A DNA stretch of 64,000 nt from Patescibacteria group bacterium (GCA_041674765.1 JBAYVE010000002.1:113467-177466); one strand, 5' to 3'. Counted from the first letter of the stretch, positions 121 to 60,063 are shown. Numbers and translations are program-made. Notes: generated from the letters alone by a model not told the origin.

Positions 121-190
121 AGTAGAAGGTGGAATGTGGAACGTGGAATGGGGAATGTAGGGAATGGGGAGTGTGGAATGGGGAACGGGT
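121..190. repeat. G-rich degenerate tandem repeat (GGAATGK / GTGGAAYGGG units); second copy of this family lies at 57187-57284
   Basis: ggaatgtggaacgtggaatggggaatgtagggaatggggagtgtggaatggggaacggg lies directly after a stop codon. It contains four GGG tracts compatible with a G-quadruplex. Confidence 0.6.
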
Positions 191-217
191 GAGAGGAGAA
201 TGGATCTGAGATTTTAG

Positions 218-250
218 AAATGCCGCTCTCTAACGGGCGGCATTTTTATA
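218..250 (+). terminator. Rho-independent terminator
   Basis: aaATGCCGCtctctaacggGCGGCATTTTTat is a 7-bp GC stem followed by a T-run. Confidence 0.6.
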
Positions 251-300
251 TTGTGGATAACGTGTTCAACTTTTGTTCGGTATAGTGTAGACTGATAAAT

Positions 301-1527
301 ATGTCTATTACTAATCAACCAAAAGACTATCAAGTTCTGTTCCTTGACATGAATTCCTTCTTTGCCTCTGTCGAGCAACAAGTTCAGCCGGCACTCCGGG
401 GAGTTCCTCTCGGAGTTGCGCCTTATACCGGCGATACCGGTTGCATTATCGCTGCTTCCAGAGAAGCGAAGGCATTGGGGATTAGCATATCCAGAATTGG
501 CGAAGCAAAGAAAATTTATCCCCAGATAAAAATTATTGAGGCGAGGCCGGCGCTTTATATGATTTATCATAAGGAGATCTGTAAAGTGATTGAGTCATTT
601 ACGCCATACTTTGAGGCTTTGAGCATTGATGAATTTGCAATCAGACTAACACCGCAAGATCAAAATTATTTTTCCTCAATCAAATTGGCCGATGAATTGA
701 AGAGGGCTATTTTGGCAAGAGTGGGAGATTGGCTTACCTGTTCAATCGGAATAGGACCGTCAGTCTTTTTGGCGAAAGTAGCGGGGGAGCGACACAAGCC
801 GAACGGCTTGACCACAGTGGCCTTAAAAGATTTAGAGGACTTTTATTCAAAATTGAGGTTGACCGACCTGGTTGGGATAAATTGGCGAATGGAGATTCGC
901 TTGAAAAATTTTGGGATTGACTCCCCTCTTACTTTTTATAAAACTTCGATGGGGGATTTGATCCAAATGTTGAAACATGGAGGCCGGCTCTGGTATTTTC
1001 GTCTCCGCGGTCACGAGGTCGACGATTATATTATTAAAAATAAAACCATTGGCCATTCCCATGTCCTTCCGCCAGAGTTCCGGACCAAGGAAGGTGCTCT
1101 GCAAGTATTACGACGATTAATATTCAAAGCCGGTTACCGTATTAGGAAGGAAAATTACTCTGCTGGTGGAGTCGCTATTTCCATCAATTTTGTAGATAGG
1201 CAGGGATTTCAGCAGAGCCGTAAATTTGCCTCTTTCTCAGATAACGATAGCTTTTTAAAAAACGCATATGAAATTCTCAAGGATTGTCCCTGGCGAAGCC
1301 GGCCCATCTTAGTTTCAGTTTCTGCTTTTAACTTGGTAAGAAGAGACGGCATTCAAATTTCTATTTTTGCGGACATTGAAAAATCCCGACGAATTTCTGA
1401 GGCTTTAGATCAGGTTAATGATGATTATGGCGCCGATACTATTTATCCCGCCTCGACGTTTCAGTCTCGAGAAACAGCGCCAGATCGAATTCCTTTCGGC
1501 AAACCGAGATACGAGATATTGCATTAA
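301..1527 (+). CDS. dinB: Y-family DNA polymerase (DNA polymerase IV-like)
   Basis: The N-terminal FLDMNSFFASVEQ motif is characteristic of the UmuC/DinB family. Length is 408 aa. Confidence 0.85.
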   Translation: MSITNQPKDYQVLFLDMNSFFASVEQQVQPALRGVPLGVAPYTGDTGCIIAASREAKALGISISRIGEAKKIYPQIKIIEARPALYMIYHKEICKVIESFTPYFEALSIDEFAIRLTPQDQNYFSSIKLADELKRAILARVGDWLTCSIGIGPSVFLAKVAGERHKPNGLTTVALKDLEDFYSKLRLTDLVGINWRMEIRLKNFGIDSPLTFYKTSMGDLIQMLKHGGRLWYFRLRGHEVDDYIIKNKTIGHSHVLPPEFRTKEGALQVLRRLIFKAGYRIRKENYSAGGVAISINFVDRQGFQQSRKFASFSDNDSFLKNAYEILKDCPWRSRPILVSVSAFNLVRRDGIQISIFADIEKSRRISEALDQVNDDYGADTIYPASTFQSRETAPDRIPFGKPRYEILH

Positions 1528-1634
1528 TTAGTGGAAAGTTCATAAAGTTAAAAGTCTTTTTTGAAGTGAGATACAAGTTGCTTTATAAACTTTAAGAACT
1601 TTCAGACTTTATAAACTTAATAAACTTATTTTTA

Positions 1635-1663
1635 TTGCAATAAAAAGGTGGCTTGTTTATAAT
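1635..1663 (+). promoter_or_regulatory. sigma70-like promoter (TTGCAA-N17-TATAAT)
   Basis: ttgcaa at 1635-1640 and tataat at 1658-1663 with a 17-nt spacer, upstream of the 1710 CDS. Confidence 0.45.
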
Positions 1664-1709
1664 GTAAGAAAGGCGTTTTGTGCCTAAGTTTTTAGTTAGG
1701 AAGGGATCT

Positions 1710-2045
1710 ATGGGCAAAATGACAATTGATGAGTTGGCGATGATTGTTGCTAAAGGATTTGAGGAAATGAGTGCAAAGATTGAATCTGAAGTCTCTTTGG
1801 TTCGAACTGACTTAAGCAATGAGATATCAGCTGTTCGAACTGACTTAAGCAACGAGATATCCTCAGTCAGGATGGATATTCACCGCCTTGATAGCAAGAC
1901 AACATCGATGCAGCAGGACATCGCTTTTATCAGAAAGAGGACGCTGGAAGACGATAATGCCATTGTAGCTGACGTCGTACAATTAACCAAAAAATTGGAT
2001 TCTTTTGATAAAAGAATCACCAAATTGGAAATTGCTAAAGTATAA
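1710..2045 (+). CDS. small coiled-coil protein with an internal tandem repeat (SLVRTDLSNEIS x2.5)
   Basis: The ATG at 1710 is preceded by AGGAAGGG. The track ORF 1680-2045 begins earlier without an RBS. Confidence 0.5.
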   Translation: MGKMTIDELAMIVAKGFEEMSAKIESEVSLVRTDLSNEISAVRTDLSNEISSVRMDIHRLDSKTTSMQQDIAFIRKRTLEDDNAIVADVVQLTKKLDSFDKRITKLEIAKV

Positions 2046-2066
2046 AACTATAAGTTGAGGGGAATA

Positions 2067-5707: not shown

Positions 5708-5712
5708 CAAAG

Positions 5713-7326: not shown

Positions 7327-7422
7327 TAACTAAAGCCCGAGTTCTAAATATGGTAAGCCTTGTATTAATTTTCAAGTAAAGATAAAATATAAATGACTAC
7401 TGGTTAAGATCTAGGAGGGACA

Positions 7423-8704: not shown

Positions 8705-8712
8705 AGGAAACG

Positions 8713-19802: not shown

Positions 19803-22742
19803 ATGTTTAAAGAAATTGATTCAAAGATGAATTTGCCCAAGGTCGAGGAAGAAATCCTTGATTTTTGGGATATGGGTAAAACATTTGAGAAATCTATTGA
19901 AAATCGCAAAGATGCCAAATTATATAGCTTCTATGACGGGCCGCCTTTTGCGACCGGAACTCCTCACTATGGCCACATTGTAGCCAGCACGATGAAGGAT
20001 GTTGTGCCAAGATATTGGACGATGAAAGGAAAAAGAGTAGACAGAGTTTGGGGCTGGGATTGCCATGGTTTGCCGATCGAAAATATTGCCGAAAAAGAGC
20101 TCGGATTTACGCATAAGAAAGAAATTCTGGATCTGGGGGTAGAAAAATTTAACGCAGTTTGCCGCTCAAAAGTTTTGGGCTATGTTTCCGAGTGGGAAAA
20201 AGTTATCCGGCGGCTTGGGCGCTGGGCCGATATGAAAAATGCCTACAAAACGATGGATCTCTCCTATATGGAGTCTGTCTGGTGGGTGTTTAAGCAGCTT
20301 TGGGACAAAGGGTTAATATATGAAGGATACCGTTCGATGCATATATGTCCCCGTTGCGAAACCACACTTTCGCAATCAGAAGTTAGTGAAGGCTATAAGA
20401 CAGTTAAGGATCTTTCTGCGATTGCCAAATTTGAAATGGTAGATGAGCGATCGACTTACTTTCTGGCTTGGACCACAACACCTTGGACATTGATTGGCAA
20501 TGTTGCATTGGCGGTTGGTCGGGATATCGATTATGTAAAAATCGAAACTCAAAATGAAGACGGGAAAATAGAAAACTATATCATGGCCAAAGATCGGTTG
20601 AAAGATGTAATGAAGGAGCGAGAATACCGGGTTGTAGATAATTATACTGGTCTTAATCTGGTTGGCCGGGCATATGAGCCACTTTTTGATTATTATATAA
20701 AAAAGCCAGGCCTTCTGAATAAGGAAAATGGCTGGAAAACAGTCACTGCAGACTTCGTGACTACTGAAGAGGGGACTGGTATTGTCCATATCGCTCCGGC
20801 TTTTGGTGAAGATGATATGGCTTTGGGCAAGGACCAAAACCTGCCGTTTATTCAACACGTGGGAATGGATGGTGTTATTAAACCTGAAGCCGGTGAATTT
20901 GCCGGTATGCACGTCAAAGATATTGAGGATAACCAAAAAACCGATATTGAAATTATAAAATACCTTGCGAAGAAAGAACTGCTTTTCTTCAAAGAAAAAT
21001 ACGAGCACTCTTATCCGCATTGTTGGCGCTGTGATACGCCGCTTCTAAATTATGCTACTTCCTCCTGGTTTGTCGCAGTTACCAAGGTAAAAGAGGATGC
21101 TTTGGAATTGGCCAAGGAGATCAATTGGTCGCCAAAACATATCAAGGAAGGTCGTTTCGGCAAGTGGCTTAAAGGCGCCAGAGATTGGTCTATTAGCCGC
21201 CAGCGCTTCTGGGCTTCAGTCATTCCGATTTGGAAATGCGATAAATGTGGAGAGATGAAGGTTTTCGGATCAGTCGCCGAATTGGAAGATCTAAGCGGTC
21301 AAACTATTTCGGATATTCATAAGGATACCGTTGATAAAATTATCTTTCCTTGTCAAAAGTGCGAGGGCCGGATGAAGAGGATTCCAGACGTGCTCGATAC
21401 CTGGTTTGATTCAGGTTCGATGCCTTATGCCCAGCTTCACTATCCTTTTGCAAATCAGGAAAAATTTGAGCAGACTTTCCCGGCTGATTTTATTGCTGAA
21501 GGACAAGACCAGACAAGAGCCTGGTTTTATTATTTGCATATTATCGCCACCGCAATTCAGAAAAAAGTGGCTTTCAAAAATGTCGAGGTCAACGGAATTG
21601 TTCTGGCGGAAGACGGCAAGAAGATGTCCAAGAAATTGCAAAATTATCCCGATCCTACGCTGATGTTTGACAAATATGGCGCTGATACAATGAGACTTTA
21701 TCTTCTGACTTCGCCTGTAATGCAAGCGGAAAATCTGAATTTCAAGGAAGCCGATATGGCCGAATTGTCCAGAGGCATCTTCCGGATGCTTTGGAACTCT
21801 TATTCCTTTTTCACTCTCTATGCGAATATAGATCGCTGGACACCAGCTCAAAGTCAAAAGTCAAAAGCCAAAAGCCTGAATTTGCTAGACCGTTGGATTA
21901 TTTCTGAATTAAATACCTTAATTCTTGAAGTGGATAAGTCCATGGAGAGCTATGAATTGATGAAGGCGTCCCGTCTTTTTCAGCCGTTTATCGACAACTT
22001 ATCAAACTGGTATATTCGCCGCTCGAGAAAGAGATTTTGGAAGTCAGAAAATGACGGAGACAAAGAAAATGCATACCAAACTCTCTGGACGGTGCTCGTT
22101 GAACTGTCGAAATTGATGGCGCCATTTACTCCATTTGTCGCAGAGGAAATATTCAAAAATCTGACAGGCAAGGAGTCTGTTCATCTGGAAAATTATCCTT
22201 CGGCTGATCAAGAAATGATTGATAATGATTTGAATTTGGCTATGGCGGAGACCAGGAAAGTGGTTGAACTCGGCCTATCTGCTAGAGCACAAGAAAGAAT
22301 TAAAGTCCGTCAACCGCTAAAGTCATTACAATATTCCGGGAGAAAATTAGAATCTGAGCTAGAGTCAATTATCGCGGAAGAAGTCAATGTTAAAGAGATT
22401 GTTCATATCGATGAAAGCAAGGATGCCCCGGGGCTAACGGTCGGCTTAGACTATAGCATTACAAAAGAGCTAAAACTCGAGGGATATGCCCGGGAAATCA
22501 TCAGAAATATTCAATCTTTACGTAAAGAAAGCGGATTCAACGTTGCCGATAGGATTTGCGTTTATTACAAGACTGATTCTGCGGAAATTGGAAAAACGTT
22601 TGAAAACTTCAGTAGTCTGATTGCTCATGAAGTTCTGGCAAATGAGATAATTGCTGGTTTGCCGGAAAAAATAGAAGGACGGCAGTTATTCAAAATTGAT
22701 GGCGAAGAAATATTGATTGGTTTAAACAGAGCTGCTAGATGA
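19803..22742 (+). CDS. ileS: isoleucyl-tRNA synthetase
   Basis: ATG at 19803 after AAGGAA. The conserved N-terminus begins MFKEIDSK…ILDFW. Carries the PHYGH and KMSKK motifs. The track ORF is extended 42 codons upstream with no RBS. Confidence 0.9.
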   Translation: MFKEIDSKMNLPKVEEEILDFWDMGKTFEKSIENRKDAKLYSFYDGPPFATGTPHYGHIVASTMKDVVPRYWTMKGKRVDRVWGWDCHGLPIENIAEKELGFTHKKEILDLGVEKFNAVCRSKVLGYVSEWEKVIRRLGRWADMKNAYKTMDLSYMESVWWVFKQLWDKGLIYEGYRSMHICPRCETTLSQSEVSEGYKTVKDLSAIAKFEMVDERSTYFLAWTTTPWTLIGNVALAVGRDIDYVKIETQNEDGKIENYIMAKDRLKDVMKEREYRVVDNYTGLNLVGRAYEPLFDYYIKKPGLLNKENGWKTVTADFVTTEEGTGIVHIAPAFGEDDMALGKDQNLPFIQHVGMDGVIKPEAGEFAGMHVKDIEDNQKTDIEIIKYLAKKELLFFKEKYEHSYPHCWRCDTPLLNYATSSWFVAVTKVKEDALELAKEINWSPKHIKEGRFGKWLKGARDWSISRQRFWASVIPIWKCDKCGEMKVFGSVAELEDLSGQTISDIHKDTVDKIIFPCQKCEGRMKRIPDVLDTWFDSGSMPYAQLHYPFANQEKFEQTFPADFIAEGQDQTRAWFYYLHIIATAIQKKVAFKNVEVNGIVLAEDGKKMSKKLQNYPDPTLMFDKYGADTMRLYLLTSPVMQAENLNFKEADMAELSRGIFRMLWNSYSFFTLYANIDRWTPAQSQKSKAKSLNLLDRWIISELNTLILEVDKSMESYELMKASRLFQPFIDNLSNWYIRRSRKRFWKSENDGDKENAYQTLWTVLVELSKLMAPFTPFVAEEIFKNLTGKESVHLENYPSADQEMIDNDLNLAMAETRKVVELGLSARAQERIKVRQPLKSLQYSGRKLESELESIIAEEVNVKEIVHIDESKDAPGLTVGLDYSITKELKLEGYAREIIRNIQSLRKESGFNVADRICVYYKTDSAEIGKTFENFSSLIAHEVLANEIIAGLPEKIEGRQLFKIDGEEILIGLNRAAR

Positions 22743-31201: not shown

Positions 31202-31295
31202 TTTTTTGGAATTTCTAGATGCAGATCCCTCGGCAGGTTTTCAACCGCTCGGGACGACAGAGGCGCTGCGATTTCTAAACAAATCCTAATGACCG

Positions 31296-31445
31296 TGATT
31301 CCAAAAACCTTGCTATTACCCTGTTTATTATTGTTCGAGGAGGAACGACGAGAACTTTGGTCATTTGTTAGTATGGTGACAGACTTCTCATTTTTAAGAG
31401 CACCATTCGAAGAATAAATACATTTGATGGGTTTTAGGGAATTAC
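31296..31445 (-). mobile_element. MITE-like 150-bp repeat element, copy A (inverted relative to copies B and C)
   Basis: The reverse complement matches copy B (35687-35838) nearly base-for-base, including gttctcgtcgttcctcctcgaacaata. The ends are tgattccaaaaacc and gggttttagggaat. Confidence 0.6.
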
Positions 31446-32724: not shown

Positions 32725-34074
32725 ATGAAATTTTTTAACACTTTGAGTTCGAAAATCGAAGAATTTAAACCGATGAATCCGAGCGAGGTTACGATGTACA
32801 CTTGCGGACCTACAGTCTATGATTCGGTCCATATTGGCAATCTGCGTGCCTACGTTTTTGTTGACCTTCTAAAAAGAGCCCTGATTGCCGAAGGCTACGG
32901 AGTGAAACACGTAATGAATATCACCGATGTTGATGATAAGACCATAAGGAAATCGGATGGCAAAAGGGATAAGATTAAATCTTTGACGAAGAAATATGAG
33001 GATAAATTTTGGCAAGATTTCGATGAATCGAACAATATCCGACCCGATGTTGTAACGCGGGCGACTGAGTATGTGGAGAAAATGATTGTTTTCATCGAGG
33101 AATTGATTAAAAAAGGTTTTGCCTACAAAGCTACTGACGGCTCGGTATATTTTTCGATTGCTAAATTCACGGATTACGGTAAATTGGCAAAGTTGGATTT
33201 GTCAGAGCTAAAATCTGGTGCCAGAGTGGCCCAGGATGATTATACAAAAGAGAATCCTGCCGACTTTGTCCTTTGGAAAGCCTGGGACGAAAAAGACGGC
33301 GAAATCTTCTGGGATTCTTCTTTGGGTAAGGGCCGTCCTGGCTGGCATGTCGAATGCTCTGTTATGTCTACTGATGTCCTAGGGCCAACTATCGATATCC
33401 ATGCCGGTGGCATTGACCTTGTTTTTCCCCATCATGAAAATGAGATTGCACAATCAGAAGCCAAATCAGGTCAGAAGTTTGTCAACTTTTGGGTGCATAA
33501 TGAGCATCTACTGGTTAGCGGACAGAAGATGTCCAAGAGTTTGTCTAATTTTTACACGCTGGATGATATCAGGGAAAAAGGATTTTCAGCACTTGATTTC
33601 CGCTACTATGCTCTTGGCGCTCATTACCGTTCCAAGATGAACTACACTTGGGAAGGAATTGAGGGGGCTAAAAATGCGAGAGAGAGGCTGATGCGTTTGG
33701 TTGCGGGAATGAAAAGTCATAACGGCAAGGTTATTCAAAAGTATCTATCACAATTTAATGAAAAAATCTTTGATGATTTGAATGTTCCGGAGGCATTGGC
33801 GATTCTTTGGGAACTTGTTCGAGATGCTGAAATCCAACCTGAGAATAAACTTACGACAATTCTGGAGATGGACAAAGTTCTAGGATTGAACCTAGGTAAA
33901 AAACAGGAACCAGAAGTAATTCCGGCCGAGATCATTAAATTGGCGGATGAGCGTAAACAAGCTAGAAATGATAAAAAATTTGGCAGATCAGATGAGATAC
34001 GGGAAGAAATGCTAGAAAAGGGTTGGAGAGTAGAGGACTTGGCTAATAATAATTATAAGATAGTTAAAGCATAA
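32725..34074 (+). CDS. cysS: cysteinyl-tRNA synthetase
   Basis: AAGGAG RBS. Carries the CGPTVYDSVHIGN (HIGH) and KMSKSLSN motifs. Confidence 0.9.
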   Translation: MKFFNTLSSKIEEFKPMNPSEVTMYTCGPTVYDSVHIGNLRAYVFVDLLKRALIAEGYGVKHVMNITDVDDKTIRKSDGKRDKIKSLTKKYEDKFWQDFDESNNIRPDVVTRATEYVEKMIVFIEELIKKGFAYKATDGSVYFSIAKFTDYGKLAKLDLSELKSGARVAQDDYTKENPADFVLWKAWDEKDGEIFWDSSLGKGRPGWHVECSVMSTDVLGPTIDIHAGGIDLVFPHHENEIAQSEAKSGQKFVNFWVHNEHLLVSGQKMSKSLSNFYTLDDIREKGFSALDFRYYALGAHYRSKMNYTWEGIEGAKNARERLMRLVAGMKSHNGKVIQKYLSQFNEKIFDDLNVPEALAILWELVRDAEIQPENKLTTILEMDKVLGLNLGKKQEPEVIPAEIIKLADERKQARNDKKFGRSDEIREEMLEKGWRVEDLANNNYKIVKA

Positions 34075-34176
34075 AGCTTAAAGCGAAAAGCATAAAGCCT
34101 AAAGCCGAAAGCGAAAAGCTTAAAGCATAAAGCAGAAAGCATAAAGCATAAAGCAGAAAGCATAAAGCATAAAGCG
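34064..34176. repeat. heptamer/nonamer tandem array (NNAAAGC)n, left arm of an inverted repeat flanking the four-helix-bundle gene
   Basis: ttaaagcataaagcttaaagcgaaaagcataaagcctaaagccgaaagc…cataaagcataaagcg. The array starts inside the cysS 3' end. A partner array with reversed polarity lies at 34541-34569 (ggctttcggctttgagctttttgcttta). Confidence 0.6.
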
Positions 34177-34182
34177 ATTGTG

Positions 34183-34536
34183 ATGAATACGATAAAAAAA
34201 TTTGAGGATCTCATTGTTTGGCAAAAATCCAGGTTATTGGTAACTGACTGTTATTTCACTTTTGAGTTTATCAAGGATTTTTCATTTAAAGATCAATTAT
34301 GCAGGGCTGCCGTTTCTATTATGAACAATATTGCTGAGGGTTATGAAAGAAAAGGAGACAAGGAATTCGGACGGTTTCTTTATATCGCAAAAGGCTCTTC
34401 AGGTGAATTTAGATCCATGCTTTATGCGGCTTCAGATCTAAAGTATATTACAAAAGACCAATTTTTAAATTTTTGTGGCCGATCCGAAGAGATCTCTCGG
34501 CTTTTAGTTGGTTTAATAAAAAGAATGAATACTTAA
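34183..34536 (+). CDS. four-helix-bundle protein (23S rRNA intervening-sequence-type protein family)
   Basis: About 117 aa. The IKKFEDLIVWQKSRLL…IAEGYER…GSSGEF pattern is typical of this family. Confidence 0.75.
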   Translation: MNTIKKFEDLIVWQKSRLLVTDCYFTFEFIKDFSFKDQLCRAAVSIMNNIAEGYERKGDKEFGRFLYIAKGSSGEFRSMLYAASDLKYITKDQFLNFCGRSEEISRLLVGLIKRMNT

Positions 34537-34576
34537 TGGAGGCTTTCGGCTTTGAGCTTTTTGCTTTAAACTTATT

Positions 34577-35626
34577 ATGAATTTTTGGAAAGATGTTGAT
34601 AGACCAATCAAAGTTCTCTCACCGATGGCCGGATATACCGACTCGGCTTTTCGTGTTCTGTGCCGCGAATTTGGCGCTGATGTGGTGATCACGGAGCTGA
34701 TTTCTGCAGATGCTATAGCCTACGGCAAATTTGAAATCCAAAATTTGAAATCCGAAACAAATTCTAATTCTAAAATTCAAAAACTAAATCAAACAATAGT
34801 TACAGGAAAAAATACTTCTACGGCGGAGATGTTATCTTTTTGCGAAGAAGAACGGCCTTTGGTGGTCCAATTATTTGGAAAATATCCAGCAAAATTTGGC
34901 ATAGCGGCTAAATGGGTTACTGAAAATTTAAAGCCAGATGGGATCGATATCAATATGGGTTGTCCCGCTAGAAAAGTGGTCAATTCTGATCATGGCGCAG
35001 CATTGCTAAAAAATCCTGATTTAGCTATCGAAATTGTAAAAGCAGTGAAGGAAAATACCGATTTGCCGGTCTCTGTCAAAACAAGACTTGGCTGGGACAA
35101 TGACGACCAAATTCTAGAGTTCGCGCCGAAACTCGCCAGCGCGGGGATTGACGCTTTGATTGTTCATGGGCGAACCTATAAAGATGGGTTCAAAGGGAAG
35201 GCTAGGTGGGAAAATATTTATAAGGTGAAAGCGTTGCTTCCGAATTTAACTGTAGTTGGCAACGGAGACATAGATTCAATTTTCAGTGTCATGCCCGTGA
35301 AGGCGGACCAGGAAAATAATGAATTGGATCCCCGGGTCAGGCCCGAGGATGACACTATTGGGCTGGACGGCTATGCCATCGGCCGAGCAACTTTTGGCAA
35401 GCCATGGATATTTTCGAAAGCTGAAGTTTCGAAAGACGAGTTGAAGGTGATAATTTTGCGGCATGCTAAACTTGTCTATCGAACAAAGGGTGATTATGGC
35501 ATGGTTGAATTTAGAAAACATCTCCTGGCTTATCTAAAAGATTTTCCAGGGGCTAAAGAGCTGAGGAAGAAAGCAGTTGCGATTAAAACACTTGATGAGG
35601 TTAAAGGAATTCTGGAATTGGTTTAA
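34577..35626 (+). CDS. dus: tRNA-dihydrouridine synthase with an in-frame repeat-derived insertion
   Basis: Flavin-binding TIM-barrel motifs are present (LSPMAGYTDSAFR…VQLFG…DINMGCPARKV…KTRLGWD). The segment YGKFEIQNLKSETNSNSKIQ is encoded by a copy of the AAATTYGAAATCC repeat. Confidence 0.85.
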   Translation: MNFWKDVDRPIKVLSPMAGYTDSAFRVLCREFGADVVITELISADAIAYGKFEIQNLKSETNSNSKIQKLNQTIVTGKNTSTAEMLSFCEEERPLVVQLFGKYPAKFGIAAKWVTENLKPDGIDINMGCPARKVVNSDHGAALLKNPDLAIEIVKAVKENTDLPVSVKTRLGWDNDDQILEFAPKLASAGIDALIVHGRTYKDGFKGKARWENIYKVKALLPNLTVVGNGDIDSIFSVMPVKADQENNELDPRVRPEDDTIGLDGYAIGRATFGKPWIFSKAEVSKDELKVIILRHAKLVYRTKGDYGMVEFRKHLLAYLKDFPGAKELRKKAVAIKTLDEVKGILELV

Positions 35627-35686: not shown

Positions 35687-35838
35687 GTCATTCCCTAAAA
35701 CCCTATTAAATGTATTTATTCTTCGAATGGTGCTCTTAAAAATGAGAAGTCTGTCACTGTATTAATAAATGACCATAGTTCTCGTCGTTCCTCCTCGAAC
35801 AATAAGAAACAGGGAAATAGCAAGGTTTTTGGAATCAC
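35687..35838 (+). mobile_element. MITE-like 150-bp repeat element, copy B
   Basis: Begins immediately after the dus stop. The termini are cgtcattccctaaaacc and ggtttttggaatca. It shares an internal core with copies A and C. Confidence 0.6.
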
Positions 35839-41858: not shown

Positions 41859-42164
41859 ATGGTTGATTTGGGAAAGATGAAGGATCTCTACGCATTACAG
41901 AAAAAGGCTAGACAGATCCAAAAAGAATTAAAAAACGTCGAAGTTGAAGCATCTAGTAACGATGGCTGGGTTACTGTAGTTTTCAATGGAGAACAGCATC
42001 TTACTGAAATTAATTTGGCAGAAGAAGCGCTCCGACCTGAAAACAAGAGAGAACTCGAAAAAGATCTGAAAAATTCAATCTCCCAGGCTATTTCAAGGGC
42101 TCAAGCAGTCGCAGCTGAAAAGATGAAAGATATTGCAGGGGGAATGGGAATACCGGGACTTTAA
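41859..42164 (+). CDS. ybaB: nucleoid-associated protein YbaB/EbfC
   Basis: 101 aa with the typical YbaB pattern (DLGKMKDLYALQKKARQIQKEL…GGMGIPGL). The last codons lie inside the 69-bp repeat. Confidence 0.85.
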   Translation: MVDLGKMKDLYALQKKARQIQKELKNVEVEASSNDGWVTVVFNGEQHLTEINLAEEALRPENKRELEKDLKNSISQAISRAQAVAAEKMKDIAGGMGIPGL

Positions 42165-42316
42165 GACCCAGCTACCCTAAAGTCCCCATACGAATTACGA
42201 ATGTACGAATCTTACGAATGCTGAAGGAAACTATTTGTTGGATTTAGTACCGGGACTTTAAGACCCAGCTACCCTAAAGTCCCCATACGAATTACGAATG
42301 TACGAATCTTACGAAT
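42151..42316. repeat. two identical 69-bp direct repeats (42151-42219 and 42248-42316), each a 9-bp-stem hairpin plus (TACGAAT)x4
   Basis: taccGGGACTTTAagacccagctacccTAAAGTCCCcatacgaattacgaatgtacgaatcttacgaat is present twice, separated by 28 bp. Confidence 0.8.
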
Positions 42317-42332: not shown

Positions 42333-42430
42333 GTCATCCTCGGGCAGGCAACGCCATGACCCGGGGATCCAATTCCTTATACTGGATTCCAGCCCGCCAG
42401 CTGGCGGATCAAGCTCCAGTCTGGAATGAC
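42333..42430. repeat. GTCATCC-type palindromic repeat element (copy 1)
   Basis: gtcatcctcgggcaggcaacgccatgacccggggatccaattcc…cgccagctggcg…tggaatgac. The termini gtcatcc and ggaatgac are inverted repeats. There is an internal 12-bp perfect palindrome. Confidence 0.6.
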
Positions 42431-43110: not shown

Positions 43111-43524
43111 CCCTATGGACTATCATTTTTAGGATGAAAAAGGGCTATTCTAAATAGTGTCATCCTCGGGACCAATGGTGTTCTTGGAAATGGTGTCCGG
43201 GGATCCAATACCATATTATTGTTCGAACAAAGTGAGAAGTGATTCTTAGAACGTCATCCTGAACCGACGCAGTCGTCCCGAGCAGAGTCGAGGGATCTGT
43301 ATCTTGTTTCAGGATCTAATTCTTTTATTTGAGGACAAAGGGGCTCTTTCCGACCTGCCCGCAGATGCTAAAGCATCAGCTTTTGCAGGCGGGGGTCGCC
43401 CCTCTATCCTCAAACTCCAACTCCCTACACGGTATAGAGGAATTCTTTTTCTTCATAAAAAATCACTGGCTACGCCGTGGTCCTATGGGCTATCATTTTT
43501 TATGACGCAAAAGGACTATTGTAG
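43111..43524. repeat. ~45-bp direct repeats (43111-43157 and 43482-43524) bracketing two GTCATCC-type elements (43159-43212 and 43253-43316)
   Basis: ccctatggactatcatttttaggatgaaaaagggctattctaaatag is matched by cctatgggctatcattttttatgacgcaaaaggactattgtag. Between them lie gtgtcatcctcggga…tccggggatccaata and gtcatcctgaaccgacgcagtcgtcccgagcag. Confidence 0.5.
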
Positions 43525-47600: not shown

Positions 47601-50600
47601 TATAATTCCGGACGAGCAATGTATAGTAAGCATTTTGATGCATCTACCAGCCGATGGGGGATTGATTACTCGATTGGAACCGAAGGATCACAACCTTCTC
47701 CGAGCATTGCGGTAAATCCTTCCAACAATGATATTTATGTGTTTTTGATTGCTAGCAACAACAGTGTTAAATACTACAAATGGGCCCTATCGACTGATCC
47801 AGAAGTACCTTCGTCTTGGGAACTTGTCGATAATATTTATAGCACAGGCACTAATACAGGTGTTTCTGTTAGTGAATATGTTTCAGGGTATAAGCTTGGA
47901 ATGATATGGACCAACGGCACTGGCTCTCCTTATACTGTTTATGCTGATTCCTTAAATTTTATTACATATGGTACTTTGAGTGGTACTGTTTACACGGATC
48001 GTACGGCAGCTACTCATGCTGGTGCCGGTGTGCAGGTCAGATTGGTAATCGATGGTACTTTAAACGAAGAAGTTGCTACTACCGATGAGAATGGCGCTTA
48101 CTCTTTTGTAACAGAGGTTGGGACGAACGATAACGTCCTAATATTTGCTGATCCTAGCGCCGGCAATATTTATGGAAATGTCGTGATGACTGCAAGCGGT
48201 GCAGATTTAACGGGCATCGATATTTACGGTAATGCTGTTATTGCTAGAAACGAAACGGCTTCGCAGGTTACAAATGAAACATTTCAAGCTGCTCACGGCT
48301 CTCTCACAGAGACAGGGATATTGTATTCCTCCGGGTTACCCATCGATTCGTCGGTGGATGGAACTTATTTTGACCTTTTGGTTTGGCCTGGCAAGAGTAT
48401 GACAGCTAGTGCGGACGTTCGTGTTGAAGATCTTGTGATAGGTACTGGTGCTACTCTAAGTGGAATGGCCTCTGCAGGTGAAAATGCATTTATGGTTTCC
48501 GGAGACTTTGTGAATAATGGTACTTTTGTTGCCAATCAGCAAAAGCTTATAGTTGAATGCTACGAAGGCTTTTGTAATGGCAGCAGTTCCCAAATTGTCA
48601 CTACTGGGGGAACCAATGCCACCTTTTACGATATTGATATTTCTAAACAGATTGGAGATTCTGTAATTATCGATGGAGACCTTAAAATTACACATGATCT
48701 CAATGTGATACACGGAACAATTGATTTGCTCACAAATACCCCTGATATAGATCTTTCTAATGATCTCTATATTTATACAAATGGTGATATGACAACAATG
48801 CCAGGAGATCTAACTTTTCTTGGGGACAGTGAATCCGAGCTGAGATTGATGAATTCTGATGTTTTTAGCCATATCATCATCGGCGGAGGAGAGGGCAAAA
48901 TTTTATCGTTGATCACATCATCCCTCTTGGCTGATACATTTACTATCAATGCCGGCAATATTTTCAAGCCGCCATACGAAGCGACGGCCACGATCAATGT
49001 GAATTGGGAAAATTATGGTACTCTTGATACTTCAAGCGGAAACTTGGCGTTGGTTTTAGAAGGTTCCGCGGAATCAAAAATATACGGCAACAATACTTTT
49101 TCTCAATTTTACTGCACAACCCCTGATAAAACGATTAAATTTGAAAGTGGTAAAACTCAAAATATTACCGGTGCTTTGAATATTACTGGTACCTCTGGGC
49201 ATAATGTTGTCTTGGCAATGCAGGGCGGGACTTCTGGTGTCGACTTTTGGAATATCGATCCCGATACCAGCTCTAGGACGGTTGATTACGTTAAAGTTAC
49301 TGATTCGACAAATTTAGACGAAGTTTATATCGATCCTCCAAATTACGATCCGGAGAGCAGCCATACTGTAAATTGGTTTCCAGCCGCTCCAACGGTAACA
49401 ACAGGAGCAAAGGATTCTTATCTAACGACGGATTTTTCATCCGACTGGATTGAGGCAAAGGGATCCATCACTGCTACTGGAGGTAAAAATCCGACTATTC
49501 GGGGTTTAAAATATAGCACTGTTGGCGAGCAGGACGATAGCTCTTCGTTTGACAGCGGTGATTACTCAACAGGCGATTTCACAAAAACTCTTTCCAATCT
49601 TGAAGTGAATACTCTCTATTATATCCGCGCCTATGCTACAAATACCGGCGGGACAGGTTACGGCAGCTGGATTTCAATGTATACCAAGGCCAATACTCCG
49701 GGCATTTCCGTTGCCGGGGATTATGACGAGGTCAGCGGCTATCATCTGGACGCTACTATTTCGCCGAATCTAAATTCCGATGGTACAGAATATTACTTGC
49801 AATATTCAACCGACGGAACCAATTTTTATGATCCAACGGGAATGGCTTGGGGGCAGACTGAAAAATCATACATTTTCACAACTGATAAAGACGGTGCTCA
49901 TATTCAACCATATACCCAATACTGGCTAAAGGTTAAAGCTCGAAACGGGGATAATATCGAGACCGACTATTCATCTTCATCAGCCGATGTTACGCCGCCA
50001 GCTGCACCAACAATAACAAATCCGGCAGTTTCAAATATCTGCAGCACTACAGCAACTGTGTCTTGGACAGCTTCCGTAAGTGGGGACAAATACGACCTAT
50101 CTTATGGTACTGATGCTAGCGCCAGCAATACCGCAGTTATCAATAATATCGCAACAACTAGTTATGAGTTGACGAATTTAGTAGAAGGTGACAAGTATTA
50201 TTTCAAAGTAAGGGCAGTTTCGAATGCAAATGGAACGGGTGCTTATTCATCAATTTCTGATCCTTTTACTCCAACAGCATGTGTGGCTCCTATTGCGCCA
50301 AATGATTTTTCGGGGACCCCTGCTTCAGCCTCAAGTATTGATTGGTCCTGGACTGATAGCTCGACGATCGAAACGGGCTACAAAGTGCATAATTTGACGC
50401 ATAGTTCTTTGTCCGGCGATCTTCCTGCAGATTCTATTGCCTGGAGCGAACAAAGTTTGGAAGTCAATACTGCGTATACTCGCCACGTTAATATTTTTAA
50501 CGAGATAGGCAATAATGATTCAAATTCGGCCACGGTTTACACAAAAGCAAATACTCCGGGCCAACCATCGGTTAACCAAATTGATTCAATTTCCTTAAAA

Positions 50601-54116: not shown

Positions 54117-54129
54117 AGTCCTATGACCA

Positions 54130-54279
54130 TGATTCCGAAAACCCTAATAAACGTATTTATTCTTTAAATGGTGCTCTTAAAAATGAGAACTTCTGTCACT
54201 GTACTAATAAGTGACAGAAGTTCTCGTCGTTCCTCCTCGAACAATAAGAAACAGGGAAAGGGTAAGGTTTTCGGAATCA
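54130..54279 (+). mobile_element. MITE-like 150-bp repeat element, copy C (perfect 14-bp TIRs)
   Basis: Begins 14 bp after the giant-gene stop. The 5' TIR is tgattccgaaaacc and the 3' TIR is ggttttcggaatca. There is an internal perfect hairpin (CTTCTGTCACtgtactaataaGTGACAGAAG). Confidence 0.65.
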
Positions 54280-54564
54280 CGTTTGATGATTATTGACAGC
54301 TTACTTAAATTATGATAAATTAATAGAGTCCAAAGACCACTAGCCTTCGCTAAAACTACAGCCGGCAAACCAGCCCGGATAGCGATAGAAGTCTTGTGCA
54401 GGAATTCCGTTAGTATAGAGTAAATATTATTGATATATGTCTATCAGCATTCTGCTGCCATCATATACAATAAATTTTATACTTTCTTGATTTCTGCGCT
54501 AGTCGCAGATTTTTTTAAATAGAGTCACAAAAAAGTAACGAAATTTACGAAAGTAAAGGAATTC

Positions 54565-55083: not shown

Positions 55084-55103
55084 TCTTATAAACTGAGTAT
55101 AGT

Positions 55104-55144
55104 GTCATTCTCGGGCAGGCAACGCCATGACCCGGGAATCCAAT
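55104..55144. repeat. GTCATCC-type palindromic element (copy between rplJ and rplL)
   Basis: gtcattctcgggcaggcaacgccatgacccgggaatccaat. Confidence 0.5.
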
Positions 55145-55181
55145 ACATTAGGTTAATTAAAAACGTTTAATAAGGAGAATC

Positions 55182-55589
55182 ATGGAAGAGAAGAAAGAAG
55201 TAGAGGTTCCTGAGAAATTCAAGGATCTCGTCGAAAAAATTGAGAAATTAACAGTTCTCGAATTGGCAGAACTTGTAAAAGTTCTCGAAGAGAAGTTTGG
55301 TGTCTCAGCCGCTGCTCCAATGATGATGGGCGCGATGCCTGCCGCTGGTGCCTCATCTGAGCCAGTTGAAGAGAAAACAGCATTTGATGTTGTTCTGACT
55401 AGCGCAGGCGCACAGAAGATCAACGTTATCAAAGCTGTTCGTGAAATCAAGCCAGAACTTGGTTTGAAAGAAGCCAAGGATTTAGTTGATGCTGCTCCAA
55501 AAGATATCTTGAAAGGTGCTAAGAAAGAAGATGCTGAAGCTGCAAAGGCAAAGCTTGAAGCTGCCGGCGCAACTGTCGAAATGAAATAA
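55182..55589 (+). CDS. rplL: 50S ribosomal protein L7/L12
   Basis: AAGGAGA RBS. Has an Ala-rich hinge. The C-terminal domain runs [24 protein letters not shown]…[14 protein letters not shown]. Confidence 0.95.
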
Positions 55590-55645
55590 GCAAGCGAATA
55601 AGCTAGTAAGCTGATAAGCTTGTAAGTGATAAGAATATACCACCT

Positions 55646-55667
55646 GGAGCCGAAAGGCTCCTTTTGG
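55646..55667 (+). terminator. Rho-independent terminator after rplL
   Basis: GGAGCCgaaaGGCTCCTTTTGG. A second hairpin (CCTCCCCttttcgaGGGGAGG) follows about 50 bp later. Confidence 0.6.
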
Positions 55668-55794
55668 TATAATATTAATAGTCTTTTTACATCCTTTCTT
55701 TTGTCATTCTTGGGTTTCATTCCTCCCCTTTTCGAGGGGAGGTTAGGTGGGGTTTATTGAATTTCAATACCTTGTATTAGTTGCTTGCAAATAA

Positions 55795-55842
55795 GGAATT
55801 GGATCCCCGTGTCATGGCTGCCGCCTGCCCGAGGATGACACT
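55795..55842. repeat. GTCATCC-type palindromic element (reverse orientation, between rplL and tgt)
   Basis: ggaattggatccccgtgtcatggctgccgcctgcccgaggatgacac is the reverse complement of the copy-1 core. Confidence 0.55.
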
Positions 55843-55871
55843 ATTGAGAAGACCAATTAAAAATTTACAAA

Positions 55872-57206
55872 ATGTCTTTTAAATTAATCAAAAAATTAGA
55901 TAACGGTACCCGAATCGGGGAACTGGCGACGCCTCATGGTAAGATTGAGACGCCCTTTTTCATGCCGGTTGGAACTGTCGGCAGCGTGAAATCGGTTTCG
56001 CCGAATGAATTAAAAGAGCTAGGTTCAGAGATCATACTTAGTAATACTTATCATTTGTACTTGCGACCAGGGGAGAAACTGATCAAGGATTTTGGCGGAC
56101 TCCACAAATTTATGAGATGGGATCGGCCAATCCTTACAGACTCTGGGGGATACCAAGTTTTTTCTTTGGCAAGAGGGGACAACCATAATAAGAATGTCAT
56201 TTATGGTTCTGTCATTCCCGCGGAGGCGGGAATCCAGAAGACCAAGGAATTGGATCCCCGGGTCACCGTTCGACCCCGAGCGACTCACGGTCGAGGGGAG
56301 CCCGAGGATGACACCATTATTAGGGACAGCAAAAGGGGTCTTGTCAAAATTACCGAGGAAGGTGTGGAATTTAAATCATTTCTCGATGGCAGCAAACATT
56401 TTTTCACTCCTGAGAAAGTTATCCAAATTCAGCTTGATCTGGGCGTCGATATTCTGATGCCGCTAGATGTTTGTCCGAGCGGCAAAGCAACTCGAAAAGA
56501 AGTGGAAGAATCGGTTCGATTAACTATTTTATGGGCAAAAAGAGCAAAAGAATATTTTGATTGCAAGATACAAGAAACAAGAGACAATAATCAAAAAAAT
56601 AACAATACAACAATAAAACAATATGACAATCGACCTCTTCTTCATGGTATCGTTCAGGGTGGTTTATATGAAGATTTAAGAAGAGAGTGCGCCAAAGAAC
56701 TTATCAAATTGGACTTCGATGGCTATTCGGTCGGCGGATTGGCTGTTGATCATGAAACAAGGGATATGTGGGAGACGGTAAAACTGATGGGGGAGATATT
56801 GCCTCAGGATAAACAAAGGTATCTGATGGGTGTCGGTACACCGGATGATATTATAAAAGCTACAGAATTAGGCATGGATATGTTTGATTGTGTCTTGCCG
56901 ACACGTTTGGCGAGACACGGAAATGTGTATGTCAGAGCAGAAAGCCAAAAACAAAAAGCTAAAAATATTAACCTATATGAACTCATTAACCTCCTCAAAT
57001 CCGAATATCGAACCGATAGGGGAGTGATAGATGAAAATTGTGGCTGTGAAGCTTGCCAGAAGGGAACGGGTTTCTCAAAGGCCTACATTTCCCATCTAAT
57101 TCGTTCAAATGAGATTTTAGGGCTCAGACTTGCGACGTTGCACAATCTCTATCAATATCTGGAGCTTATGAGAGAACTCGGTTGGAGAGTGGAACGGGGA
57201 AAGTAG
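55872..57206 (+). CDS. tgt: queuine tRNA-ribosyltransferase carrying an in-frame repeat-element insertion
   Basis: Conserved Tgt blocks are present (FMPVGTVGSVK, PILTDSGGYQVFSL, YLMGVGTPDD, CxCxxC zinc site). An extra ~45-aa segment (…NVIYGSVIPAEAGIQKTKELDPRVTVRPRATHGRGEPEDDTII…) is encoded by a GTCATCC-type element. Confidence 0.85.
   Translation: MSFKLIKKLDNGTRIGELATPHGKIETPFFMPVGTVGSVKSVSPNELKELGSEIILSNTYHLYLRPGEKLIKDFGGLHKFMRWDRPILTDSGGYQVFSLARGDNHNKNVIYGSVIPAEAGIQKTKELDPRVTVRPRATHGRGEPEDDTIIRDSKRGLVKITEEGVEFKSFLDGSKHFFTPEKVIQIQLDLGVDILMPLDVCPSGKATRKEVEESVRLTILWAKRAKEYFDCKIQETRDNNQKNNNTTIKQYDNRPLLHGIVQGGLYEDLRRECAKELIKLDFDGYSVGGLAVDHETRDMWETVKLMGEILPQDKQRYLMGVGTPDDIIKATELGMDMFDCVLPTRLARHGNVYVRAESQKQKAKNINLYELINLLKSEYRTDRGVIDENCGCEACQKGTGFSKAYISHLIRSNEILGLRLATLHNLYQYLELMRELGWRVERGK
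56211..56316. repeat. GTCATCC-type palindromic element inserted in-frame inside tgt
   Basis: gtcattcccgcggaggcgggaatcc…ggaattggatccccgggtcacc…gggagcccgaggatgacacc. It includes an 8-bp perfect hairpin (ATTCCCGCggagGCGGGAAT). Confidence 0.6.
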
Positions 57207-57284
57207 AATGTAGAGAGTGGAATGTAGAATGGGGAGTGTAGAGCGTAGAATGTAGAACGTAGAATGGGGGGTGTGGAACGGGGC
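57187..57284. repeat. G-rich GTAGAATG/GGAATG tandem repeat (second copy of the 121-190 family)
   Basis: gagtggaacggggaaagtagaatgtagagagtggaatgtagaatggggagtgtagagcgtagaatgtagaacgtagaatggggggtgtggaacgggg. It starts within the last codons of tgt. Confidence 0.55.
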
Positions 57285-57389
57285 ATGTTCATCTGTGGAT
57301 TAGCCTTGACAGTCTTCTCTAGTTGCTTGATAATTGAATTAGCGATAGTCCAATCAATTCAAAGCATCATTTTTAAAATTTGGAGGAAG

Positions 57390-58766: not shown

Positions 58767-59059
58767 TGGCTAATTTCGATTATACAAGACTAGAGCAGCT
58801 GCAAGATGCAGGGGATTGGGCCGGCGCCAAGGCGATGATCAAAGGTTTCTTTGAAACTGAAGTAACCGCGGGGGATATCGGCGAGGTTTATGCTCGTCTC
58901 TCAATTGCTTATATCAGGGTTAGTAATGAGATCAATCAAAAGTATTCTCAGTTTTTGGCGGCCACTCTGGATGCGCTAAAAAAGGTGGATCAGGCAAAAA
59001 ATGAGAACGATAAGCAGATTGATATTGAGGCAGTCAGGAATCAAATCGCGGGATTGTAA
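58766..59059 (+). CDS. small hypothetical protein, translationally coupled to upstream gene
   Basis: AGGAGG RBS. The taATGg start overlaps the upstream stop. Length is 97 aa. Confidence 0.5.
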   Translation: MANFDYTRLEQLQDAGDWAGAKAMIKGFFETEVTAGDIGEVYARLSIAYIRVSNEINQKYSQFLAATLDALKKVDQAKNENDKQIDIEAVRNQIAGL

Positions 59060-59086
59060 TATTTGAAACAGGTGTCGAAACGAGAT

Positions 59087-59116
59087 AGCGCCGGGATAAG
59101 TTCGGCGCTTTTTTTG
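59087..59116 (+). terminator. Rho-independent terminator
   Basis: AGCGCCGggataagttCGGCGCTTTTTTTG. Confidence 0.7.
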
Positions 59117-59135
59117 TATGACGGAACCAAAACTC

Positions 59136-59163
59136 TTGACAAAAAATATAATTCTGATACAAT
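59136..59163 (+). promoter_or_regulatory. near-consensus promoter P1 (TTGACA-N16-TACAAT)
   Basis: ctcttgacaaaaaatataattctgatacaat. It shares the CTCTTGACAAAAA -35 context with P2. Confidence 0.55.
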
Positions 59164-59169
59164 GATCAG

Positions 59170-59530
59170 TTCTGAGGGTATGGTTCGACTTAGCTCGCCA
59201 TGAAGGAGTGCGGAAGTCCTCAGGAGGTAAATACATCTTTTAAAAAACAGATTACAGATAATACGGATATACAGAATATTCGTAAATTCATATCCATTCG
59301 TAATCTTCGTTTAGTACTTGCGTCAATGTGCTGGTAGTCAATCCATTTAATTGGAAATGTAGGTTCCCCCTCCGCCTGCATGATTATCAGCACAGTGCTG
59401 CAAGTCATATTACACCAATCTGATATTCTTCGACTCCGCGGTAATTCGAGGGTGGAGAAGTTCTCCACCTACTACGTAGAGTCGAACAATAGATATGTCA
59501 GAACGGCAGACGAGTTATTGATAAAGGGGC
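59170..59530 (+). ncRNA. candidate small RNA 1 (C-rich loop hairpin at 59357-59381)
   Basis: Lies downstream of P1. The hairpin is ATGTAGG-ttccccctccg-CCTGCAT. No RBS-led ORF is convincing. The 3' end is undefined. Confidence 0.3.
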
Positions 59531-59539
59531 GTATTCCTC

Positions 59540-59568
59540 TTGACAAAAACAAAGCAGTGTGATATAAT
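59540..59568 (+). promoter_or_regulatory. consensus promoter P2 (TTGACA-N17-TATAAT)
   Basis: ctcttgacaaaaacaaagcagtgtgatataat. Confidence 0.6.
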
Positions 59569-59574
59569 ATAAAG

Positions 59575-59790
59575 TGTTGGTTGATAGACCAGCAGTAAAA
59601 GATTACTTGATCATAAGATTGGCAGGTGGGAATGAGGGATCGGATGCCGATATAATGAATCGAAGAAATTGCAGGCGGCAGCGTCCTGCATAGCTCACAC
59701 CATCGCAAGATGGACAATGGGTTCCCCCTCCGCCCATTGAAGAGTTATGTAGGACATTGTTGCCTGTTTTTTAAAGCAAAACGGCATCAA
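59575..59790 (+). ncRNA. candidate small RNA 2 (C-rich loop hairpin at 59715-59739)
   Basis: The hairpin is CAATGGG-ttccccctccg-CCCATTG, with an 11-nt loop identical to that of sRNA 1. It is followed by a T-tract (tgcctgtttttt). Confidence 0.3.
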
Positions 59791-59930
59791 AACAGATTAC
59801 GGATTATTTAAGTATACAAATTTTGGATATTTAAGTAATCCTTTGAACTTTGACAATAGAATATTTATCCGGAGCAAGAAATTTTCATACATTGTTCGGC
59901 AATATTTGCATGCGAGATTCCCGCCTTCGC

Positions 59931-60063
59931 GGGAATGACAAAGAAATAGGGGAATGACAGAAAGTCTGGGGAATGACAAAGAAAACAGGAGAATGACAAA
60001 AAAAGGGGGAATATCAGAGAAATATGGGAATAATAGAGAAATAAGGGAATAGTAGATAGACAG
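59931..60063. repeat. iteron-like array: seven ~19-bp direct repeats of GGGAATGACAAAGAAA decaying 5'->3'
   Basis: gggaatgacaaagaaatag / gggaatgacagaaagtctg / gggaatgacaaagaaaacag / gagaatgacaaaaaaag / ggggaatatcagagaaatat / gggaataatagagaaataa / gggaatagtag. It is preceded by the hairpin ATTCCCGCcttcGCGGGAAT and lies 105 bp upstream of the 60169 gene. Confidence 0.6.

Follow-up and report, generated by a model that had tools for sequence, protein, structure and literature searches.

The 64,000-nucleotide stretch of DNA analysed here (GCA_041674765.1 JBAYVE010000002.1:113467-177466; hereafter the window) comes from an uncultivated bacterium of the Candidate Phyla Radiation (CPR), or Patescibacteria. 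It carries two conspicuous classes of short repeat: G-rich heptanucleotide arrays, most of them next to stop codons, and oriented hairpin units of the type known in Neisseria as NTS, a class also described under the name SRM. An earlier sequence-only reading had united both in one superfamily built on a shared GGAATG-like word. We consider it likely that the G-rich arrays and the hairpins are instead two independent repeat systems and that the 6-mer they share is due to chance. In simulations, at least one of 10 to 14 random heptamer families shares a 6-mer with a hairpin foot in 28% to 38% of trials, and GTCAT and AATGAC, the invariant core of the hairpins, are missing from all three G-rich arrays; the link between arrays and hairpins is therefore attributed to coincidence. 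Both repeat classes, the heptamer arrays and the hairpins, belong to kinds that are already known.

Hairpin units and their putative nuclease partner

The hairpin units follow the layout 5'-GTC, ATYCC-stem, loop, stem-GGRAT, C-3', and the pattern GTCATYCY-N6-36-RGGRATC has eight matches in the window against 0.09 expected. Including near-matches, about 12 units are present in the 80.7 kb of this genome that is readable with flanks, divided roughly 6:6 between the strands. When 11 units are aligned, TGTCAT and one C are invariant; most units retain the C that follows the palindrome, but the 59939 and 43253 units have a T there. The most common form (type A) has the consensus ATAGTGTCATCCTCGGGC-loop-CGGGGATCCAATTCCTTAT. 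Units are found singly, as inverted doublets and, in one case, as a hairpin with a 19-nt ladder of half-sites in front of it, and they fold as stable single-stranded-DNA hairpins (z -2.2 to -5.4). The hairpin ATTCCCGC-N4-GCGGGAAT noticed in the sequence-only reading does occur twice (56214-56233 and 59917-59936, the first a few nucleotides from where it had been placed). The same reading took GGGAATGAC as the terminal repeat of the palindromic element, which did not hold up, as most ends read GAGGATGAC.

In Neisseria, NTS has the sequence CGTCATTCCCGCGMAVGCGGGAATCYRG, within which lies the earlier-described dRS3 motif, ATTCCC-N8-GGGAAT (Chenal et al. 2025, PMC11893778), and its variant NTSvar reads CGTCATACTCGGG-N5-CCCGAGTATC (PMC11893778). 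The partner protein SsnA is a 94-amino-acid, single-domain GIY-YIG nuclease that binds and cuts NTS and NTSvar only as single-stranded DNA; GTC, the three bases immediately 5' of the palindrome, determines cleavage, binding depends on the C that follows the palindrome, the cut site lies a few nucleotides upstream of the motif, and the motif typically flanks ssnA genes (PMC11893778). Hairpin binding and cutting a few nucleotides 5' of GTC are established for Ssn in both Neisseria and Wolbachia (PMC11893778). The units described here share with this system an oriented, multi-copy hairpin with a 5' GTC and, in most units, a C after the palindrome, and the type-A units resemble NTSvar. Two units (56210, + strand, and 59940, - strand) match the NTS consensus at 26 of 28 positions, and the degenerate SRM pattern has one match, 59913-59940 on the - strand, against 0.2 in shuffles. 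Since the bases conserved in the units (GTC and, in most, the 3' C) are those on which Ssn depends, an Ssn-type enzyme would be expected to recognise them.

A system of this kind is present in the clade. In relative L007, a 97-amino-acid GIY-YIG gene lies directly upstream of tgt, with a hairpin before its start codon and an inverted hairpin after its stop codon. Its product is 48% identical (E 4e-26) to a 94-amino-acid open reading frame (ORF) of N. gonorrhoeae that is itself flanked by canonical NTS copies and is taken here, from its length and context, as the gonococcal SsnA orthologue.

Several observations weigh against assigning the hairpins of this genome to an Ssn enzyme. The strict SRM match is a single one, and no unit falls within the limit of one mismatch to NTS that is used in PMC11893778. 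In the 80.7 kb, no ssnA-like gene with flanking hairpins was found, and the mobilising nuclease or transposase gene anticipated by the sequence-only reading likewise found no candidate there. Some 8 kb to the left of the window lie two small GIY-YIG genes whose products share only 34% to 38% identity with gonococcal SsnA; both lack the SsnA C-terminal segment, are UPF0213-like and are not flanked by hairpins. The Neisseria repeat has also been ascribed to a REP-associated tyrosine transposase (RAYT; bioRxiv 10.1101/2021.07.10.451892) and to a phage recombinase (PMC1797815), so that an Ssn enzyme is a candidate partner here. The system differs further from the Neisseria one in its host, as CPR/Patescibacteria are not named in the main text of PMC11893778, in loops of up to about 40 nt and in the copies that lie in frame in tgt and dus. 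A separate observation concerns the region about 8 kb left of the window (L087 915-1733), which holds in a row a degenerate tRNA-Trp-like copy, a 90-amino-acid GIY-YIG gene, an intact-looking tRNA-Trp(CCA) and an 83-amino-acid GIY-YIG gene, the tRNAs having been read by eye.

REP sequences usually have a tetranucleotide flank, and the conserved flank here is GTCAT instead. That the hairpins are nevertheless REP/REPIN-type elements spread by a RAYT (an HUH tyrosine transposase), or targets of an IS110-type recombinase, rather than Ssn sites appears unlikely. This alternative would account for the inverted doublets less than 130 bp apart at 42333-42430 and 56210-56312, and it has precedent in that an identical Neisseria 21-mer has been treated as a REPIN with a cognate RAYT (bioRxiv 10.1101/2021.07.10.451892) and dRS3 is a phage recombinase integration site (PMC1797815). 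In the REP/REPIN-RAYT systems of Bertels and Rainey (bioRxiv 10.1101/2021.07.10.451892), short palindromes also form inverted doublets of about 100 bp, and the Neisseria REPIN master 21-mer has the same core as the units here. However, no Y1 transposase or IS110 domain was detected among the called genes of the 80.7 kb, where a transposase, RAYT or IS110 gene near the repeats was also sought and not found. REPINs are almost exclusively extragenic (bioRxiv 10.1101/2021.07.10.451892), yet three of the units here lie in frame in tgt and dus. The oriented GTC...C flanks agree with the requirements of Ssn, and it is the order hairpin, ssnA-like gene, hairpin that occurs in a relative of the clade.

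The units also bear comparison with the dRS3 and NIME repeats of Neisseria (Bentley et al. 2007, PMC1797815). The ATTCCC-N8-GGGAAT core is found twice here and units cluster with short spacers, but long NIME arrays of 50-150 bp RS elements are absent, and most units have a ATCCTCGGG stem rather than ATTCCCGC. Rfam returned only a chance-level match to the Francisella small RNA (sRNA) FtrB (E 0.41) over the NTS hairpin at 59877-59968 on the - strand. The string GCGGGAATGAC occurs in a Francisella sRNA paper, and NTS-like hairpins may be annotated elsewhere as sRNAs.

G-rich arrays and the wider class of heptanucleotide repeats

The sequence-only reading had claimed arrays of GGAATG-type units directly after two stop codons. 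G-rich arrays of period 7 and 14 are indeed located after stop codons at 121-190 (array 1) and 57185-57284 (array 2), but array 2 has a single copy of GGAATG and is dominated by GTAGAAT. Both arrays end, as that reading had it, in GTGTGGAAYGGGG (171-183 and 57271-57283), a string with 0 matches in shuffles. Array 1 begins 8-12 nt past the stop codon at 111-113, and because it lies between this stop codon and an intrinsic-terminator hairpin (about 215-246; missed by the terminator scan but evident on folding), it is probably transcribed. Array 2 starts inside tgt, also in agreement with the earlier observation: the last eight codons of the gene (GWRVERGK) and its stop are array sequence, with the stop TAG (57204-57206) forming part of an array unit. 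The C-terminus of Tgt is thereby encoded by the array, and the Tgt ends of relatives differ; at the orthologous positions in 10 relatives, no G-rich array follows tgt. A promoter-like site, TTGACA-17-GATAAT, is located at 57306-57334, 22 nt past array 2. A third array of the same family lies outside the window, and there (L089 14696-14995, window-equivalent 64865-65163) two copies of an approximately 60-nt repeat (TTGTTCGAGCTTGTCGAGAAC) and then (CTTAGTA)x12 come after array 3.

These three arrays are part of a much larger class. Tandem arrays of period 6-10 with at least three copies, called with Tandem Repeats Finder and compared with shuffles for the chance level, number 18 in the window against 0.5 in shuffles, and 12 of the 18 have period 7 (0.03 in shuffles). 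Intergenic DNA (7.4 kb) accounts for 14 arrays where 0.03 would be expected, and 15 of the 18 are at least partly inside the non-coding 11.5% of the window. In 12 of these 15 cases the upstream stop codon is nearer than the next start, and in three genes (cysS, prfA and tgt) the stop codon itself is overlapped by an array; some arrays are found in tolerant protein loops. A strong promoter-like site is present within 150 nt of only three of the 18 arrays, not an unusual number for intergenic DNA. The unit sequences, of which at least 10 are unrelated to one another, include TAAAGCA (16 copies), TACGAAT, TAAGCTAG, AAATTCGAAATCC, TAAAAAT, AAGCAGT and CAGTTT, with CTTAGTA and GAATTAT units just outside the window. 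The G-rich family has three loci, and a CTTTATAAA / ACTTTAYRA family has four, one of them inverted.

One array also differs in length between assemblies. The window sequence is found again as a 222-kb metagenome contig in ENA and as Logan contigs that break at repeats, and over the 64 kb the sole difference from the ENA contig lies in the TAAAGCA array, where the window is three units (21 nt) longer (34141-34155). It may reflect a true copy-number polymorphism or a collapse in assembly, and in both cases its unit structure is of the slippage type. The three-unit indel places the G-rich arrays in a general, length-variable class. Heptamer arrays are denser still in relatives (7.3 per 10 kb), and period 7 dominates both in relatives (43 of 78 arrays) and in unrelated bacteria (109 of 191), in keeping with the surplus of heptameric repeats reported for bacteria (PMC4692102). 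Tgt scans of metagenomes and genomes returned nothing above 67% identity, too distant for a comparison of array lengths at the population level. Beside the TAAAGCA array, a gene for a 23S rRNA intervening-sequence protein (PF05635, 34183-34536) stands between that array and a short inverted array (GCTTT..., 34537-34576; whole region 34065-34576), and the two arrays might pair as a long stem enclosing the gene.

The G-rich arrays would thus be ordinary heptanucleotide simple-sequence repeats, which may originate, and gain or lose one to three units at a time, through slipped-strand mispairing or unequal recombination, and for which no sequence-specific protein would be needed. Two observations count against this view: assembly collapse could by itself explain the 21-nt difference, and the three arrays have a 14-nt higher-order unit and their strand in common, so some function of the G-rich arrays is conceivable. 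Taken as a class, the arrays show the 7-nt tandem units, dispersed loci, non-coding preference and length variation of heptamer simple-sequence repeats or of repeats like the short tandemly repeated repetitive (STRR) sequences. The STRR sequences of cyanobacteria are dispersed intergenic families of 7-nt tandem repeats and in this resemble the arrays here. The cyanobacterial TAACTGA heptamers (MacGregor 2015, PMC4679880) likewise form dispersed, sometimes intragenic, tandem families but differ in unit sequence and lineage, and they are mostly found just upstream of start codons (PMC4679880), whereas the arrays here mostly lie just after stop codons. A literature search for heptamer repeats in CPR bacteria found nothing specific.

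The closest published counterparts by composition are the GGGAATC and GGGGA(C/T)T heptamers of Xanthomonas and Nostoc (Rehm et al. 2015, PMC4692102), which have 7-nt G-rich units on the coding strand, variable copy number and sequence, and no known function, as do the arrays here. Those heptamers lie within 50 bp of stop codons (PMC4692102); arrays 1 and 2 likewise overlap a stop codon or come within 50 bp of one, and array 3 is in a divergent spacer. Unlike the Xanthomonas and Nostoc heptamers, the units here mostly have GG rather than GGG and no four regularly spaced G-tracts, array 2 is without quadruplex potential, and the genome contains many families that are not G-rich.

The suggestion that the GGG tracts form G-quadruplexes is not supported. 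The canonical G3+N1-7 motif is absent from all three G-rich arrays. With loops of up to 12 nt allowed, arrays 1 and 3 qualify as quadruplex motifs and array 2 does not; quadruplex-aware RNA folding gives -5.6 vs -0.9 kcal/mol for array 1, -20.1 vs -0.6 for array 3 and no quadruplex for array 2. Quadruplex potential was consequently rejected as a property common to the family, array 2 having none. It is quite unlikely that the arrays are functional quadruplex elements in 3' untranslated regions or upstream of promoters, where they would modulate termination, mRNA stability or transcription in the manner of the Xanthomonas and Nostoc repeats. The coding strand is the G-rich one in all three arrays, arrays 1 and 2 are within 12 nt of stop codons, quadruplexes are predicted for arrays 1 and 3, and there is the precedent in the literature (PMC4692102). 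Set against these points are not only the missing canonical motif and the failure of array 2 but also the position of array 3 in a divergent intergenic region rather than after a stop codon, the occurrence of arrays with A/T-rich units at the same kinds of position and the lack of the array after tgt in relatives.

Tests of a single shared word

It is very improbable that a single superfamily unites the GGAATGK arrays, the palindromic elements, the hairpins and the 19-nt array, with one GGRATGAC/GGAATG word as their common source or as the site at which a single protein recognises them all. GGAATG or GGGAAT is present in all of these, and GGGAATGAC has five matches in the window against 0.46 expected, but three of the five lie in the single 19-nt array. 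Neither of two other words is enriched in the window: GGAATG occurs 45 times against 43.9 expected, and GGRATGAC seven times against 3.7, which is not significant. The lone GGAATG of array 2, the lack of the hairpin core in the arrays, the rate at which a 6-mer is shared by chance and the membership of the arrays in a class of many unrelated heptamer families also argue against common descent or recognition. The idea of one DNA-cleaving protein for GTCATYCC / GGRATGAC suits the 19-nt array as well as the hairpins and palindromic doublets, all of which match NTS/SRM motifs; for the GGAATG arrays it is not supported.

The 19-nt ladder

The direct-repeat array at 59931-60063 is real, but GGGAATGAC, which had been said to head each of its seven units, heads only the first three; unit 4 starts with GAGAATGAC and the last three with GGGAATA(T/A/G). 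The array consists of 6.3-7 direct repeats of 18-20 nt with a period of 19 nt, its first unit doubles as the right arm of an NTS hairpin, and identity falls with distance from that hairpin. Read on the strand of the hairpin, it is a ladder of repeated left arms (TGTCATTCCCC) 5' of the hairpin, each after a pyrimidine-rich spacer. Upstream of gonococcal ssnA the arrangement recurs: an inverted NTS and, after it, GGGAATGAC-type half-sites at 19-nt intervals. A gapless alignment of the two gives 80% over 100 columns as reported by the tool and about 67% outside the hairpin by our own count, with hairpin and ladder in near-identical register in the CPR bacterium and in Neisseria. Half-sites also occur upstream of other hairpins, namely other Neisseria NTS copies, those of CPR relatives L002 and L007, and the tgt hairpin (at 15 nt). 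The word "tandem" does not appear in the main text of the Ssn paper (PMC11893778).

These features suggest that the ladder is an NTS-associated structure, a by-product or accessory of nuclease-associated processing, rather than a set of iterons. It could have originated by duplication in repair after cleavage 5' of GTC, or it could offer alternative pairing partners for the single right arm. That the array represents iterons of a replication origin or plasmid-like element is exceedingly improbable: at least three repeats of 17-22 bp are present (seven of 18-20 nt), and both GC-skew sign and gene orientation change near 60-61 kb, but the nearest DnaA-box matches are at 48509 and 62683 with a window total below chance, no Rep, DnaA or partition gene is nearby in what is a chromosomal housekeeping context with neighbouring genes lacking Pfam domains, the + genes and positive skew on the left and - genes and negative skew on the right fit converging rather than diverging forks in a change that is only local, and unit 1 is an NTS right arm in a ladder found again upstream of N. 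gonorrhoeae ssnA.

Around the ladder, GC skew flips sign at about 60000-61200, and gene orientation changes from + to - at 61163 and back to + by about 65.4 kb, a change that may be local. Two strong promoters, TTGACA-16-TACAAT and TTGACA-17-TATAAT, both with TG, are located in 59136-59380 and 59540-59740 with no ORF downstream. The motif GT(A/G)GGTTCCCCCTCCGCC follows about 200 nt past each of them and is also found after tgt in L006 and L007. Rfam gave no match for the two regions, which may encode a clade-specific non-coding RNA that is duplicated here.

In-frame insertions in Tgt, Dus and other proteins

Insertions in conserved enzymes were defined by alignment to solved structures. In Tgt (gene 55872-57206), a 57-residue insertion after GGYQVFSL (site 1) contains the NTS unit and an inverted type-A unit, and two more low-complexity insertions are built of heptamer repeats, giving three sites in total. 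Dus (gene 34577-35626) carries a heptamer-array insertion and a type-A unit. All of the Tgt and Dus insertions are in frame and without stop codons, and a repeat in ileS (21850-21874) is listed with those of tgt and dus among in-frame repeats at surface-loop positions of conserved enzymes.

Most relatives examined have an insertion at Tgt site 1, with L003 and L046 as exceptions. Hairpin doublets occupy the site in L091 and L007, and because the prefix ARGxNHNK is common to L091 and the window, the insertion in L091 is probably orthologous to the one described here. Heptamer arrays with different units are found at this site in L002, L004, L005, L006, L008, L010, L032 and L094, and L011 has a different hairpin amid an AAAAATC array.

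Palindromic elements of Rickettsia are reported (Ogata et al. 2000) to be inserted in frame in protein-coding genes. Like the repeats in tgt and dus, they are reportedly palindromic repeats in frame in conserved housekeeping genes and apparently translated. They belong to an unrelated sequence family, and the insertions here are shorter and share their sites with heptamer arrays. It is possible, though we advance it only tentatively, that the NTS/SRM hairpins and the 19-nt ladder act across phyla as a functional module of Ssn-type nucleases, one that has spread into CPR genomes, with the apparently translated hairpins and heptamer repeats, inserted again and again in identical surface loops of essential enzymes, as a CPR counterpart of the Rickettsia elements and the ladder as an undescribed footprint or accessory site of Ssn action.

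Table 1 Positions of the repeat features discussed in the text
Feature	Position	Strand	Remarks
G-rich heptanucleotide array 1	121-190	+	Units GTGGAAT / GGGGAAT / GTAGGGAAT, period 7/14
G-rich heptanucleotide array 2	57185-57284	+	Mostly GTAGAAT, period 7/14/35
G-rich array 3, same family	~64865-64935 (window-equivalent, outside window)		Divergent intergenic spacer
(TAAAGCA)x16 array	34065-34175	+	Overlaps cysS stop codon
19-nt ladder of hairpin half-sites	59931-60063	+	GGGAATGAC and purine-rich 10-nt spacer, decaying to GGGAATAGT
NTS-type hairpin TGTCATTCCCGCGGAGGCGGGAATCCAG	56210-56237	+	2 mismatches to NTS; in frame in tgt (peptide VIPAEAGIQ)
Half-site-like copy TGTCATTT	15 nt upstream of 56210-56237 hairpin		
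Type-A unit GTCATCCTCGGG...CCCGGGGATC, long loop	56253-56312	-	Inverted relative to NTS unit; in-frame doublet at tgt site 1
NTS-type hairpin TGTCATTCCCGCGAAGGCGGGAATCTCG	59913-59940	-	2 mismatches to NTS; sole SRM-pattern match
Type-A unit	42333-42369	+	Left half of intergenic inverted doublet
Unit GTCATTCCAG...CTGGAATCC	42384-42430	-	Right half of 42333-42430 doublet
Type-A unit	43159-43205	+	Intergenic
Unit GTCATCCTGAAC...CGAGGGATC	43253-43297	+	Intergenic
Type-A unit	55104-55140	+	After rplJ
Type-A unit	55802-55839	-	Upstream of tgt
Type-A unit	35327-35353	-	In frame in dus (peptide ELDPRVRPEDD)

Genomic setting and neighbouring features

The window has a G+C content of 42%, and its + strand carries nearly all genes. 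The closest Tgt relatives belong to genome bins labelled 'Berkelbacteria', 'Saccharibacteria' or Patescibacteria, with 53% to 67% identity. Rfam gave no match at the gathering score anywhere in the window, permissive Rfam scans of the two G-rich arrays within it gave no match either, and a scan of the window for tRNA and transfer-messenger RNA genes found none.

Two further repeats were recorded. A perfect 69-nt direct duplication with 97 nt spacing (42151-42316) adjoins the hairpin doublet at 42333-42430 and takes in the last 14 nt of a ybaB-like gene and a TACGAAT array. Three copies of a dispersed repeat, each about 150 bp long (31295-31442, 35687-35838 and 54132-54281), are 84% to 93% identical; one of them is inverted, and Logan contigs break at this repeat.

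Implications

Separating the arrays from the hairpins removes a false unification, since a common 6-mer is no proof of a repeat superfamily. It also places Neisseria-type NTS/dRS3 hairpins, for which a biochemically defined partner, Ssn, exists, in an uncultivated CPR bacterium, and it names candidate Ssn substrates in the hairpins at 56210-56237 and 59913-59940 and in the type-A units. Tgt and Dus tolerate both the hairpin repeats and the heptamer arrays as in-frame insertions, which matters for the annotation and modelling of CPR proteins.

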